Shown in pieces: positions 3,899 through 36,063 of a stretch of 40,766 bases of DNA (position 1 is the stretch's first letter; the number at the start of each line of letters is the position of its first letter). The position numbers and the translations under genes are program-made. The stretch comes from Kagunavirus LF7074P3. Under the pieces are notes generated by a model, which was not told the DNA's origin, searched no databases, and was given only the letters and a program-made list of their open reading frames with translations. The stretch is from the sequence record OZ035791.1; one strand, 5' to 3'.

Positions 3899-4359
3899 TG
3901 ATGGGCTTTTTCAAAGTAACTGACGTACCGTCTCGTCGCGTAGTCCAGTACGCCCGCGTGTCTGGCTCTGGCGAGAACGTGGTGTTTATTGAAGACGAAA
4001 GTGTACTCGGAACACCAGTGGACGATATGCCGTTTGCGGACAAGACCGGTATTGCGCTGCCAGCGGCAGGTATGCTTTATGAGATTCAGTACCTGGCGGA
4101 TGCTGGTGATGTGTATTTCTCCGTACAACCGCAGGACGCTGAACTGGCAGACGGCAGCGCAAATATCGCTGTCGAAGTTAAGGCGGGCAAAGCACCATAT
4201 GCGCTGACCTGGTACAAAGACGGGAAGGAAGTGGTAAACGCCCCGGAAGAGGCTCTGTCTCTGACGGTTAACGCAGTTGGTGAATACTTCGTTAAAGTCA
4301 CTGATGCCGATGGTATAGAGGCCGTAAGTAAAGCAGCGAAGGTTACTAAGCCAGAATAA
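3898..4359 (+). CDS. structural protein with Ig-like C-terminal domain (putative head decoration)
   Basis: 153-aa ORF; C-terminal beta-rich segment ...PYALTWYKDGKEVVN...EYFVKVTDADGIE resembles Ig-like fold; followed by strong terminator. Confidence 0.45.
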   Translation: MMGFFKVTDVPSRRVVQYARVSGSGENVVFIEDESVLGTPVDDMPFADKTGIALPAAGMLYEIQYLADAGDVYFSVQPQDAELADGSANIAVEVKAGKAPYALTWYKDGKEVVNAPEEALSLTVNAVGEYFVKVTDADGIEAVSKAAKVTKPE

Positions 4360-4363
4360 ACTG

Positions 4364-4385
4364 AAGCCCCGAAAGGGGCTTTTTA
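4364..4385 (+). terminator. rho-independent terminator
   Basis: AGCCCC-GAAA-GGGGCT hairpin + TTTTT immediately after 3898..4359. Confidence 0.8.
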
Positions 4386-9400: not shown

Positions 9401-10569
9401 ATATGGCTACAACTCCTTTTAAGGGCGCGAATACCGCGCAATTCTATGTGGCGGAAACTACCCCGGGCGTAACACCAAGTAACCCGGTATGGTCACCATT
9501 GCGCAACACAGGTGGCGTTCCAGCGGTAACCCGCGATGCGCTGACTTCCAACGAACTCGACGGCAGCCGTGAAACTACATCCATTCGCACCGGTAACAAG
9601 CAGGTTAGCGGGGAGTATGCCATCGAACTTAGCTCACGTAGCCAGGATGACTTCCTTGCGGGGGCGATGACTTCTACGTGGCAAGCTGGGGTAGAGATTA
9701 CGGGCGCCGAAATTACGGTCGCCCCCGCGGGTAAAACATTCACCCGCGCTGCCGGTAGCTTCATTACTGACGGTGTAGAAGTTGGTGACCTGATCGCGTT
9801 CACCGACTTAACCGGCGACAACGCAAAACCGTTTATCGTGACCGCGGTTTCTGCTCTTGTAGTAACAGGCGCGGGCATTCAGCACACGCTGACAGCAGAG
9901 ACAGTAACCACTGACGCAAAAACTGGCGACAAACTGGAAACCGGTAACGCATGTAAGACGTTCTCCATCCTGACGTGGTTCAAAGGCCAGTGCGGCAACC
10001 CTGACGCATACATGCTGACCAAAGGCGTGGAAATCTCCGGTTTCACCATTGAACAGGCCGTAAACGCGATGGTGACAGGCAGCTTCCCGTTCATCGGTCT
10101 AAGTCAGGAAATTCTTACCACGCCGCCAGCAGGTTCCGACTTCTCTCAGGTCACATTCACCGATGAGCCGTTCTCTTCTGTGGATGTGTCTGTGTTCGAC
10201 GGTTCTACACCGTTGCGTTGCGACACACTTACCATCACCAACGACAACGGCGCTTCCGCACAGTTTGAACTAGGAAACAGTAGCGTTGCGTTCGTGGAAC
10301 GTGGTCGCGCGGCTAACACCTTCTCCATCTCCGGTAAGCTGTACGACATGGCGATGATTCAGAAGTTTATCAACGAGCAACAGGTGGAGATCAACTCTAT
10401 TCTGGCGGGGGTAAACGGGGCTATGTCTTTCAGCCTGAAACGTGCAGAACTCACGGCAGTTACGCCAGAGATTGGTGGACCTGAGTCGATCACTCAGTCT
10501 ATTGAAGGGCAGGCTACTGGCAACCAGTACCAGTCGTCTATTGTTATCCAGCGTATCACCTACGCATAA
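9397..10569 (+). CDS. major tail protein (positional call)
   Basis: 390-aa ORF, last gene before strong terminator. Confidence 0.6.
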   Translation: MNMATTPFKGANTAQFYVAETTPGVTPSNPVWSPLRNTGGVPAVTRDALTSNELDGSRETTSIRTGNKQVSGEYAIELSSRSQDDFLAGAMTSTWQAGVEITGAEITVAPAGKTFTRAAGSFITDGVEVGDLIAFTDLTGDNAKPFIVTAVSALVVTGAGIQHTLTAETVTTDAKTGDKLETGNACKTFSILTWFKGQCGNPDAYMLTKGVEISGFTIEQAVNAMVTGSFPFIGLSQEILTTPPAGSDFSQVTFTDEPFSSVDVSVFDGSTPLRCDTLTITNDNGASAQFELGNSSVAFVERGRAANTFSISGKLYDMAMIQKFINEQQVEINSILAGVNGAMSFSLKRAELTAVTPEIGGPESITQSIEGQATGNQYQSSIVIQRITYA

Positions 10570-10574
10570 AACTA

Positions 10575-10597
10575 AGGCCCCGAAAGGGGCCTTTTTC
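10575..10597. terminator. bidirectional rho-independent terminator
   Basis: AGGCCCC-GAAA-GGGGCCT hairpin + TTTTT; sits between convergent genes (9397..10569 + and 10598..11152 -). Confidence 0.8.
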
Positions 10598-13000: not shown

Positions 13001-13030
13001 TTTAAACCCCTTCATTGTTGGTGTAAGTGA

Positions 13031-13059
13031 ATAGTACCCTATTATATTGGGGTGTGCAA
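13031..13059 (-). promoter_or_regulatory. sigma70-like promoter TTGCAC-N17-TACTAT driving the minus-strand island
   Basis: Minus-strand reading cTTGCACaccccaatATAATAGGGTACTATTCAC; 32/34 identical to promoter at 34757-34790. Confidence 0.6.
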
Positions 13060-25220: not shown

Positions 25221-25505
25221 TTAACTATAATAGCTCGCTATTAGGTCGTCAACCTGTTTAAACGAACCAACGACAAAAACATTCGCACCACGTTTACGCA
25301 TCCGCTCGTGCTCACGTAACTGGTGTGGGTCTGGCTTCGTGTTTTCGTCTTTCTTAACCTCGACGAACAAGACGATGCCGCCGGGTAGAATTACCAGCAG
25401 ATCGGGAGCGCCGGAGCGCCCCTCATAGGAAAGTTTACGAACGAGGCCGCCGATAGCCTCGAATCGCTCTTTTGCGTATTTCTGGATGCGCCCCTCTTTA
25501 GTCAT
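25221..25505 (-). CDS. VRR-NUC domain nuclease (PD-(D/E)XK)
   Basis: 94 aa; ...GAPDLLVILPGGIVLFVEVKK... matches PD..(D/E)xK core of VRR-NUC family. Confidence 0.65.
   Translation of the reverse strand: MTKEGRIQKYAKERFEAIGGLVRKLSYEGRSGAPDLLVILPGGIVLFVEVKKDENTKPDPHQLREHERMRKRGANVFVVGSFKQVDDLIASYYS
25224..25252 (-). promoter_or_regulatory. sigma70-like promoter TTGACG-N17-TATAGT (minus strand) with ATAG-N4-CTATTAG dyad in spacer
   Basis: Minus-strand gTTGACGacctaatagcgagctatTATAGTt; lies inside 3' end of VRR-NUC ORF. Confidence 0.6.
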
Positions 25506-28847: not shown

Positions 28848-28876
28848 ACTATAATAGCTAACTATTCAGGTGTCAA
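28848..28876 (-). promoter_or_regulatory. sigma70-like promoter TTGACA-N17-TATAGT (minus strand) with ATAG-N4-CTATTCA dyad
   Basis: Minus-strand gTTGACAcctgaatagttagctatTATAGT; 55 nt upstream of SSB-like gene start. Confidence 0.7.
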
Positions 28877-31138: not shown

Positions 31139-31168
31139 ACTATAATAGCGAACTATTCATGATGTCAA
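31139..31168 (-). promoter_or_regulatory. sigma70-like promoter TTGACA-N18-TATAGT (minus strand) with ATAG-N4-CTATTCA dyad
   Basis: Minus-strand aTTGACAtcatgaatagttcgctattATAGT. Confidence 0.65.
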
Positions 31169-31173
31169 TGGGC

Positions 31174-31204
31174 TTTTCTAAAATAATTAATATGGTACTA
31201 TTCA
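31174..31204 (+). promoter_or_regulatory. candidate rightward promoter/operator for cro-like gene
   Basis: ATAT-ggta-CTATTCA dyad (31190-31204) with TACTAT -10-like hexamer; -35 poorly defined. Confidence 0.3.
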
Positions 31205-33838: not shown

Positions 33839-33869
33839 CCCCGACGTTCTAGCGTTGGGGTTTCTTTTT
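33839..33869 (+). terminator. plus-strand hairpin + T-tract inside leftward operon
   Basis: CCCCGACG-TTCTAG-CGTTGGGG (one G-U) followed by TTTCTTTTT; hairpin weaker on minus strand. Confidence 0.4.
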
Positions 33870-34158
33870 ACCGTTTAGCCAACTCTTCCAGCAAATTTTT
33901 ATACTCTTCAAAATATTCCTCGACCAAATCATCGCCGAAATAGAAGTCGATATACTCGAGATTATCTCTTACGTTAAGCGACGCAGACATGGTGCTTAGT
34001 TGGCGTAAGCTAATTAGCTTCATTTCTGTTTCTACACAGAAAGGCCGGTAGGTATCGAGGTGGCAAGAGATGTTGAAGCATAAAGCGAACTCTCCCGCCA
34101 CGGAGTGAACCATATACACTTCGTTTTCTGCTTTATTGTGGAAAATTACACCTTTCAT
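33868..34158 (-). CDS. hypothetical protein
   Basis: 96-aa ORF, ATGA overlap with upstream HTH gene. Confidence 0.45.
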   Translation of the reverse strand: MKGVIFHNKAENEVYMVHSVAGEFALCFNISCHLDTYRPFCVETEMKLISLRQLSTMSASLNVRDNLEYIDFYFGDDLVEEYFEEYKNLLEELAKR

Positions 34159-34337
34159 TTCACATTCTCCTTAATCCATTCTTCAACTTTATTACGGTCA
34201 AATGTACCTGGTAAACGGCGACCCATAACCTTAATACAACAATCAGGGAATTTACCACTGCGCAACCAGTTATTAATTGTCTGACGTGTTACCCCAATAC
34301 GCTCGGCTACTTCATTCTGGGTCATGTAATGTTGCAT
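34155..34337 (-). CDS. small HTH DNA-binding protein (AlpA/excisionase-like fold)
   Basis: 60 aa from ATG 34337 (RBS AGGAG); ...MTQNEVAERIGVTRQTINNWL...; track ORF to 34451 judged an extension across promoter DNA. Confidence 0.55.
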   Translation of the reverse strand: MQHYMTQNEVAERIGVTRQTINNWLRSGKFPDCCIKVMGRRLPGTFDRNKVEEWIKENVK

Positions 34338-34368
34338 TTTTATATCTCCTGTTTGTTTGGTGAAGCTG

Positions 34369-34397
34369 AGTATAGGATAGCGGGAATGTAAAAGCAA
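34369..34397 (-). promoter_or_regulatory. leftward early promoter TTGCTT-N17-TATACT
   Basis: Minus-strand hexamers with 17-nt spacer, about 25 nt upstream of ATG 34337. Confidence 0.5.
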
Positions 34398-34434
34398 CCA
34401 ATCCCTGCAATATTTAATCTTTACAAAAAAGTTA

Positions 34435-34464
34435 TTGAAAGTTCTTGACACATGTTTGTATAAT
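34435..34464 (+). promoter_or_regulatory. rightward promoter TTGAAA-N18-TATAAT
   Basis: Consensus -10 TATAAT at 34459-34464; divergent from leftward promoter; no ORF for about 350 nt downstream. Confidence 0.5.
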
Positions 34465-34491
34465 GGTTTTGGGACTTGTATATATTACGGA

Positions 34492-34523
34492 GTTGACGAA
34501 CCCTCCCTGAGGGATTCGTCAAC
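34492..34523. repeat. 32-bp near-perfect palindrome GTTGACGAAcCCTCcctGAGGGaTTCGTCAAC
   Basis: 14-bp arms with one bulge; read directly. Confidence 0.8.
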
Positions 34524-34663
34524 CCCTCCCAGACAGCTGAGATGCTTGTTTTAGGGTTTAAGGATAAGTGTATCTAAATCTCATTTAAAGAAGTAACCCA
34601 CTGAAATATCTACTGTTTCTTAATGTGCCGTAGATTCGCAACCGTAAAAATGTAACGATTATT

Positions 34664-34691
34664 GGGCAGGCTTAAGGCCTGCCCTTTAGTT
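34664..34691 (+). terminator. rho-independent terminator
   Basis: GGGCAGGC-TTAAG-GCCTGCCC hairpin followed by TTTAGTT. Confidence 0.6.
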
Positions 34692-34756
34692 ACCAAGTAA
34701 TAAGAATAAAGGCACAACCTTCCCCGAAGAATCGCAACGGCAGCGTAACTATTCTC

Positions 34757-34785
34757 TTGCACACCCCAACATAATAGGATACTAT
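34757..34785 (+). promoter_or_regulatory. sigma70-like promoter TTGCAC-N17-TACTAT with ATAG-N4-CTATTCA dyad
   Basis: cTTGCACaccccaacATAATAGGATACTATTCAC; near-identical copy on minus strand at 13027-13060. Confidence 0.65.
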
Positions 34786-34819
34786 TCACTTATCGGAACG
34801 AGACAGAGGAGTTGGGGTT

Positions 34820-35005
34820 ATGTTTAAGAAGGGTCAGTTGGTGAGAACCAGACACCATGGCAAAGGTGTAATTAAGCACGTTTCGCAGAGAGTTGCAGAT
34901 AGGTATCTTCTTACCAATCCGTATTGGGATTTTGATATGTATTTCCAGGGACGCGAAATAGTAGAGCTCATCGGCAACAATTTTAAATTCAAAGGGGCGA
35001 AGTGA
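34820..35005 (+). CDS. hypothetical small protein
   Basis: 61-aa ORF, RBS GAGGAG. Confidence 0.5.
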   Translation: MFKKGQLVRTRHHGKGVIKHVSQRVADRYLLTNPYWDFDMYFQGREIVELIGNNFKFKGAK

Positions 35006-36003: not shown

Positions 36004-36032
36004 TTGCACACTAAGATAGAATAGGCTACTAT
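36004..36032 (+). promoter_or_regulatory. sigma70-like promoter TTGCAC-N17-TACTAT with ATAG-N4-CTATTCA dyad
   Basis: aCTTGCACactaagatagAATAGGCTACTATTCA, 32 nt upstream of gene at 36064. Confidence 0.6.
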
Positions 36033-36063
36033 TCATTTACACAAACGAGAGGGGAGACAGAAT

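Follow-up and report, generated by a model that had tools for sequence, protein, structure and literature searches.

The window analysed here is the whole 40,766-nucleotide stretch of DNA from Kagunavirus LF7074P3 (OZ035791.1), which BLAST relates to hundreds of E. coli and Salmonella (Jerseyvirus) phages, with Kagunavirus LF7074P1 as the closest record. The palindrome that concerns us lies in an intergenic control region, as the original prediction had it, and this region is divergent, separating a leftward HTH/helicase-primase operon from a rightward cluster of small genes. The operon, on the minus strand, begins with a 60-aa HTH_17 (PF12728) DNA-binding protein (34155-34337) and continues with a 96-aa ORF (33868-34158) and a 735-aa AAA_25 helicase-primase. 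Its putative promoter, P_L (TTGCTT-17-TATACT, 34369-34397, minus strand), was read by eye and falls below the threshold of the promoter scan; relatives carrying the type B version of the region, described below, have TTGATT-17-TATACT at the same place. The rightward genes form a string of small plus-strand ORFs, the first of which starts at 34820.

To the right of P_L, the plus strand carries a sigma70-type promoter, P_R1 (TTGAAA-18-TATAAT, 34435-34464; an 11/12 match in the promoter scan), whose counterpart in phage fBC-Eco01 is annotated as a host promoter. Its predicted start at about 34471-34474 would place the palindrome at approximately +20 to +52 of the transcript, behind some 18 nucleotides that are predicted to be unpaired. 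About 140 nucleotides without a conserved ORF separate the palindrome from a terminator-like hairpin detected by the terminator scan, GGGCAGGC-TTA-AGGCCTGCCC followed by TTTAGTT (34664-34684, plus strand); Salmonella phages carry a compensatory variant of this hairpin, and its variants include one G·U and one A·C. A second putative promoter, P_R2 (TTGCAC-17-TACTAT, 34757-34785, or to 34788 with the dyad, plus strand), lies directly upstream of the first rightward ORF and overlaps a repeated dyad, ATAATAGGATACTATTCA, a site that the authors of fBC-Eco01 labelled a "phage promoter". The canonical terminator AGCCCCGAAAGGGGCTTTT is found elsewhere in the genome, in three copies within the structural-gene region (2789-2815, 4358-4384 and 10569-10595).

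The DNA at 34601-34700 (plus strand), which we refer to as the core, is non-coding, and an ATCTAC/GTAGAT stem is predicted within it. E. coli and Salmonella Guernseyvirinae with the type A or type B version of the region share the core almost unchanged, and in type C it is divergent; the segment 34601-34820 matches 387 records, against 20 phage records for the 161 nucleotides around the palindrome. The core contains the sequence ...TTCTTAATGTGCCGTAGATTCGCAACCGTAAAAATGTAACGATTA... in addition to the terminator-like hairpin, and is conserved more strongly than the neighbouring genes. A long-range pairing is also predicted between 34479-34490 (UAUAU-UUACGG) and 34642-34654 of the core (CCGUAA-AAUGUA), which would close a multibranch fold of an RNA of ~220 nucleotides.

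The dyad at P_R2 belongs to a recurrent family. The AATAG-N4-CTATT core of the near-palindrome ATAATAG-N4-CTATTCA occurs in 6-7 genome copies against 0.02 expected (34771-34788, 36018-36035, 31187-31204, 31142-31159, 28851-28868 and, on the minus strand, 13028-13045; also 25223-25244), and every copy of ATAATAG-N4-CTATTCA is intergenic and at a promoter position. Examples of the promoters linked to it are TTGCAC-17-TACTAT (34757 and 36005) and, on the minus strand, TTGACA/TTGACG-17-TATAGT (28877 and 25253). This motif is probably either a phage-specific class of promoter or an operator bound by a dimeric protein, for which HTH_17 is a possible candidate.

The palindrome itself (34492-34523) reads GTTGACGAA-CCCTC-CCT-GAGGG-A-TTCGTCAAC on the plus strand, and the sequence, coordinates and 14-bp arms originally given for it are correct. 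It pairs as a 9-bp and a 5-bp stem, 14 bp in total, with a single bulged A (34514) in the 3' arm and a 3-nucleotide loop (34506-34508) that is CCT in the window and CCC in most relatives. Flanking bases extend the helix to GGAG...CCCC (34489-34526, plus strand), giving 17-18 bp when one A34491·C34524 mismatch, which is a G·U pair on the minus strand, is spanned. It was also said to be the largest dyad in the genome, and both of our scans agree: it is the longest dyad found by a dedicated stem-length scan, and it ranks first among all 45-nucleotide local folds when a sliding fold is run over both strands of the whole genome. The folding energy of the 45-nucleotide segment is -24.0 kcal/mol on the plus strand and -28.2 kcal/mol on the minus strand, where the hairpin has 18 pairs and is slightly more stable, compared with a genome mean of -8.0 (sd 3.9), and the z-score of the hairpin against dinucleotide shuffles is -5.4. 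A dyad of at least 14 pairs with at most one bulge arose in 13 of 1000 first-order Markov genomes. Folded as single-stranded DNA, the hairpin has energies of -13.6 (plus) and -15.4 (minus) kcal/mol.

Searches for a known element at this position were negative. Rfam gave no match in the whole window at gathering thresholds and only chance-level matches (E ≥ 0.26) in 34330-34830 at E ≤ 10, a tRNA/tmRNA search found none, and a search of the literature found no published description of the palindrome element. We also considered whether the palindrome is an intrinsic terminator. The GC-rich 14-bp stem-loop is present, but the U-tract directly 3' of it is absent on both strands (the stem is followed by CCCCTCCC on the plus strand and by CTCCGTAATATA on the minus strand), and the palindrome is not among the terminators reported by the terminator scan. 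A TTGACG hexamer, described earlier as resembling a -35 element, is indeed present in each arm; as promoter elements the two hexamers fail, since 17 bp downstream of either, on its own strand, lies TCGTCA and no -10, and neither appears in the promoter scan.

Comparison with relatives shows that the palindrome is part of a mosaic cassette, 34402-34600, because other phages have unrelated sequence at this position between conserved left and right flanks. The version in the window, which we call type A (~200 bp, plus strand), consists of AT-rich upstream DNA, P_R1, the hairpin and ~75 nucleotides more, and is swapped as a block for an unrelated type B or type C cassette. The 161 nucleotides around the hairpin recur in 20 phage records, two IMG/VR contigs and two metagenome contigs (~24 sequences) at 95.7-100% identity, and the region is absent from the E. 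coli genomes searched. One of the phages with the type A cassette is vB_Eco_K1B4 (OQ696342), for which a time-course RNA-seq data set has been published (PMC12645636). Divergent hairpin copies, sought in IMG/VR and JGI metagenomes with one outer-stem pattern and two flank patterns, yielded only near-identical Kagunavirus copies and chance palindromes. The IMG/VR searches also turned up arrays of GTTGACGAA-TT-GTTGACGAA-A-TTCGTCAAC in AT-rich intergenic DNA of an unrelated phage group (six contigs); with their direct and inverted TTGACGAA repeats, these look like operators that are unrelated to the Kagunavirus hairpin.

Variation among type A copies is sparse and falls outside the stem. Over the 56 nucleotides centred on the hairpin, two of the 20 records are identical to the window, 16 have one change and two have two, the single change being T34508 to C in the loop in the copies that were read. 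The only non-loop changes in these 56 nucleotides are two independent substitutions, one in each arm, and both close the flanking A·C mismatch: A34491 to G in DUEC01, giving G-C, and C34524 to T in Bas75, giving A-T. This direction of change, in which the loop varies and the helix lengthens, matches what selection for pairing would predict. None of the 28 stem positions varies in the ~24 type A sequences, an invariance that is not statistically above background given the 96-100% identity of the copies and the ~1.4 stem changes expected, and the commonest flanking pair is A·C on the plus strand and G·U on the minus strand, the reverse of the expectation for a plus-strand RNA. Elsewhere in the otherwise ~100% conserved cassette, a 7-nucleotide hypervariable patch (34548-34554) reads GTTTTAGGG, GCCTTGGGG, GCCCAACGG or GCCTTGTGG, and a further variable spot lies at 34598-34600; no compensating partner was found for the variants at either place.

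Type B cassettes, found in K1ind1, NTEC3, SZH-1 and all Salmonella phages sampled, have the promoter TTGACA-17-TAAGGT or TAAGTT followed, from about +14, by an interrupted hairpin of ~100 nucleotides (AGTTAC...GTAACT). This hairpin has 33-41 pairs, with a helix of about 35-39 bp interrupted by internal loops, and folds at -30 to -39 kcal/mol (z = -4.7 to -5.9). Across 18 distinct sequences, all 288 of 288 cells of the basal stem are standard pairs on the plus strand, and pairing drops to 21-49% when the partners are shifted by 1-3 columns as a control. Pairing is kept through substitution: one pair is A-U, G·U or G-C (10, 6 and 2 sequences, respectively), another is G-C or A-U (16 and 2), and a third is G-C or G·U (12 and 6). 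The G·U pairs are A·C mismatches on the opposite strand, and the folding energies of the two strands show no consistent bias. At least four unrelated sequences, each of them self-complementary, occur at the hypervariable apex, and in NTEC3 a GCTTAAC can pair with either of two downstream copies of GTTAAGC.

Type C cassettes (L AB-2017, Snoke and Golestan) have TTGACT-17-TAAGCT and then GC-rich hairpins in which a U-A pair is exchanged for C-G between variants; their folding does not differ significantly from that of shuffled sequences (z = -1.3 to -2.0), and they do not have the same terminator as types A and B. A (CTCA)n microsatellite of varying copy number, higher in Golestan, lies ~20 nucleotides after GCCGTAGGT in type C. 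In all three types, the structures are always downstream of the cassette's own promoter. The original prediction had proposed that related phages be compared for conservation of dyad symmetry rather than of sequence, and the comparison bears this out, with a clear result for types A and B and a weaker one for type C: hairpins are found at the matching place of the predicted transcript in unrelated cassettes, and in type B they show compensatory changes and G·U pairs. Dyad symmetry is thus conserved in a place where sequence is not, and the analogous hairpin of relatives is conserved as a structure.

If the palindrome were the target of a particular phage protein, the gene for that protein might be expected to travel with it. 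For 16 loci whose cassette type is known, we compared the ORFs on either side of the cassette, and we supplemented this with database searches. The HTH_17 protein is 96-98% identical between type A and type C phages, and the helicase-primase shows at least 98% identity over its N-terminal 320 aa in 42 records, among them those of the type C phages Snoke, Shashou, L AB-2017 and Golestan. In 19 of 20 records the cassette is found together with the 96-aa ORF, the exception being UTI-CM001, in which a 70-aa ORF of type C replaces it and the type A cassette and hairpin are kept. UTI-CM001, which also retains the HTH gene and the helicase, is a natural recombinant, and a homologue of the 96-aa protein, 55-63% identical, occurs in another group of 18 phages. 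Even within type A, the first rightward ORF is not the same from phage to phage. Among the HTH gene, the 96-aa ORF and the helicase-primase, therefore, none co-varies with the palindrome, which speaks against a site for a cognate repressor or an origin tied to one initiator and would fit a self-contained cis element that uses host machinery.

We favour the interpretation, to which we assign a little less than an even chance, that the palindrome acts as RNA, as a stem-loop in the early leader transcribed from P_R1. Three readings had been offered at the outset, a dimeric protein-binding site, a replication origin or cruciform and a very stable RNA hairpin; the last is the one favoured by our analysis, and the first two found no support in it. 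The dyad lies within the predicted leader of a strong promoter and has a 3-nucleotide loop and an asymmetric bulge, and complementarity that continues up to such a loop, with a bulge on one side, is typical of a folded single strand and not of two protein half-sites. Several observations count against a plus-strand RNA: the type A hairpin is somewhat more stable on the minus strand and its usual flanking pair is A·C on the plus strand, the type B energies favour neither strand consistently, the terminator-like hairpin varies both to G·U and to A·C, and the type C fold is not significant. The element is best described as a putative cis-acting stem-loop of an early leader, or of a candidate non-coding RNA of ~220 nucleotides.

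In the mechanism that we propose, host sigma70 RNA polymerase would transcribe from the strong early promoter P_R1 and meet the stem-loop ~20 nucleotides into the transcript, and promoter and stem-loop would be inherited jointly as a ~200-bp cassette without need for a cassette-specific phage protein. The transcript could then take one of two forms, either an untranslated leader of ~350 nucleotides that reads through into the rightward early genes or, if it ends at the hairpin at 34664-34684, a non-coding RNA of ~220 nucleotides. The rightward genes need not depend on read-through, because P_R2 lies downstream of the terminator-like hairpin. Most likely, the stem-loop would serve as a module of double-stranded RNA on which host enzymes act. 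RNase III could process it, or it could block exonucleases or RNase E scanning, and such a site or barrier may set the stability and the ends of the early RNA. It would not be a classical 5'-terminal stabiliser, since an unpaired 5' tail of ~18 nucleotides precedes it.

This structural role for host enzymes is modelled by analogy on the RNase III hairpins of the T7 early region (R0.3, R1.1 and others), in which structure is conserved rather than sequence. Both T7 and Kagunavirus are virulent coliphages that express their early genes from strong sigma70 promoters through host RNA polymerase, and in each a stable hairpin lies within a long untranslated leader before the first early gene, although in Kagunavirus this arrangement is predicted. 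T7 R-sites comprise ~20-25 bp, or about two turns, of double-stranded RNA with a characteristic internal loop. By comparison, the Kagunavirus helix, which has 14 bp and a bulge, or 17-18 bp if a mismatch is included, is shorter than RNase III sites typically are, while its type B analogue reaches ~35-39 bp; the hairpins of the two phages have no sequence relationship.

In lambda nut boxB and HK022 put, the order of elements is early promoter, RNA stem-loop or stem-loops, intrinsic terminator and early genes. Kagunavirus shares this order, and lambdoid stem-loops likewise differ in sequence between relatives. Unlike lambda nut, however, the Kagunavirus cassette has no conserved boxA-like element, the nearest look-alike varying among type A copies, no N-like protein co-varies with it, and it has no Rfam match. 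Antitermination would also be unnecessary here, given that P_R2 is downstream of the terminator.

A more specific possibility, which we regard as tentative and on balance unlikely, is that all Guernseyvirinae have, at the start of the early region, an undescribed small non-coding RNA gene consisting of a consensus sigma70 promoter, a swappable 5' hairpin and a 3' core conserved between types A and B. There would be at least three unrelated types of 5' domain, of which the palindrome would be the type A version; in types A and B the unit would end at the terminator-like hairpin, and in type C the core is divergent and the same terminator is absent. The conserved core would be the effector and the 5' hairpin a fast-evolving specificity or decoy domain, directed for example against a host RNA-targeting defence or towards competition with co-infecting relatives. 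The unit resembles phage sRNA genes and 5'-UTR-derived sRNAs in its strong promoter, its ~220 nucleotides without a conserved ORF, its core and its terminator-like hairpin. It differs from them in being known from sequence alone, in the weakness of its U-tract (TTTAGTT), in the absence of the same terminator from type C and in its targets, as a search of the leader against the phage genome found only chance 10-11-mers and nothing longer than 11 nucleotides.

Alternatively, the palindrome may have no selected function and be a chance or hitch-hiking dyad in a recently acquired cassette. The known copies, all 96-100% identical, are too uniform to reveal purifying selection on the stem, the palindrome is missing from phages that have the same neighbouring genes, and the genome-wide probability of such a dyad by chance, 1.3%, is small but not negligible. 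We nevertheless consider this explanation unlikely, as the palindrome sits precisely in the predicted leader of the main early promoter, two independent substitutions have closed its flanking mismatch, and two unrelated cassette types have structured elements in the same place.

It is improbable, in our estimate, that the palindrome is an operator or roadblock at which a dimeric phage or host protein, bound to two GTTGACGAA half-sites, blocks or tunes elongation from P_R1. The perfect 9-bp inverted half-sites and the HTH_17 gene 150 bp away are what make this idea attractive, and the two flanking substitutions are both transitions, which a protein accepting either purine would tolerate. Operators of dimeric HTH proteins, however, have symmetric half-sites and a non-structural spacer and usually place the half-sites one or two helical turns apart. 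Here the half-site centres are 23 bp apart, the spacer is self-complementary down to the 3-nucleotide loop, which an operator does not need, and the bulge introduces a one-nucleotide asymmetry that breaks the dyad. The site is positioned at +20 to +52 and not over the promoter, and the regulatory dyad that this genome does repeat is a different motif, AATAG-N4-CTATT, with six copies at promoters. The dimeric protein site first suggested for the palindrome thus gains no support: the GTTGACGAA half-site has no other exact copy in the 40.8-kb genome, and the adjacent HTH gene is nearly the same (~96-98% identical) in type C phages that do not have the palindrome.

We think it similarly doubtful that the palindrome marks a replication origin, where a cruciform, or a fold in unwound DNA, would serve as the loading or priming site of the helicase-primase, possibly activated by transcription from P_R1. 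The site is close to the replication operon and next to an AT-rich stretch (~30% GC), its hairpin folds equally well on both strands and as single-stranded DNA, and the cumulative GC skew has its minimum at ~34 kb. That minimum, however, coincides with the switch in transcription direction and is therefore not independent evidence. The palindrome cannot be the specific recognition site of the helicase-primase, because phages with the unrelated type C cassette (Snoke, L AB-2017 and Golestan) keep at least 98% identity over the N-terminal 320 aa of this protein. No iterons flank the palindrome, and the part of the region conserved between types A and B is the core at 34601-34700 rather than the palindrome. 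S-type cruciform extrusion is disfavoured by a GC-rich centre and by a bulge, both of which are present here, and the hairpins of type B are much too interrupted for it. The origin or cruciform originally envisaged thus gains no support, with the HTH gene and the helicase-primase ~96-99% identical in phages without the palindrome and the centre of the dyad GC-rich.

In T4-type phages, a strong sigma70-like early promoter and an adjacent GC-rich stem-loop form small cassettes known as PeSLs (promoter-early stem-loop), which occur at mosaic junctions (PMC2839356, PMC4122927). Their stem-loop precedes the promoter and acts as a terminator for transcription that arrives from outside, and there are many copies per genome (PMC2839356). 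The Kagunavirus cassette shares with them a sigma70 promoter with an adjacent stem-loop and exchange as blocks between close relatives, and differs in that its stem-loop is downstream of P_R1, is present in a single copy and has no U-tract. On the minus strand, the palindrome could by the same logic be an RNA or DNA insulator or attenuator that stops leftward transcription into the P_L region. The minus-strand hairpin is the longer and more stable form (18 pairs, -28.2 kcal/mol), all three states of the flanking pair (G·U, G-C and A-U) are legal on that strand, and the leftward order of stem-loop, AT-rich region and P_L is the PeSL order (PMC2839356). We judge this very unlikely, because no U-tract follows on the minus strand (CUCCGUAAUAUAU), the promoter scan found no leftward promoter to the right of the hairpin, the genes to the right of it are on the plus strand, P_R1 intervenes between the hairpin and P_L, and PeSLs occur many times per genome as opposed to once here.

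Several further candidates were rejected. A genome end or pac site was considered, as three Danish phage records begin in the core, but the record of dunkel is a circular permutation whose break falls in the intergenic region, and it has no terminal repeat. A P4-type TGTTCACC iteron occurs once in type B cassettes, is absent from the window and was judged a chance occurrence. Coding is likewise rejected: a 59-aa minus-strand ORF (34610-34789), the only one in the core, is broken by a 10-nucleotide insertion in SZH-1, an 11-codon plus-strand ORF at 34541 has non-synonymous changes among type A copies, and a 33-codon minus-strand ORF over the hairpin in Bas75 has no promoter and a Shine-Dalgarno sequence only 2 nucleotides from its TTG. 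Minus-strand "hypothetical proteins" are annotated across the hairpin or leader in several genomes (e.g., Bas75_0055); these small ORFs show no conservation from one cassette type to another and probably reflect errors of gene calling.

The Guernseyvirinae (Kagunavirus and Jerseyvirus) are among the commonest isolates of therapy phages against E. coli and Salmonella, with hundreds of genomes. Their early regulatory region has so far been left unannotated or filled with spurious small ORFs. The ~480-bp control region is now mapped as a consensus early promoter, a swappable leader cassette, a core conserved between types A and B and a repeated promoter or operator motif, and this map can be used for transcript mapping and for engineering. 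Within it, the palindrome is a new instance of a familiar kind of element, real and non-random in its structure and putative in its role. If the P_R1 unit is not a discrete RNA, the palindrome would be an ordinary leader stem-loop; if it is, the unit would add a modular phage non-coding RNA to a very short list.
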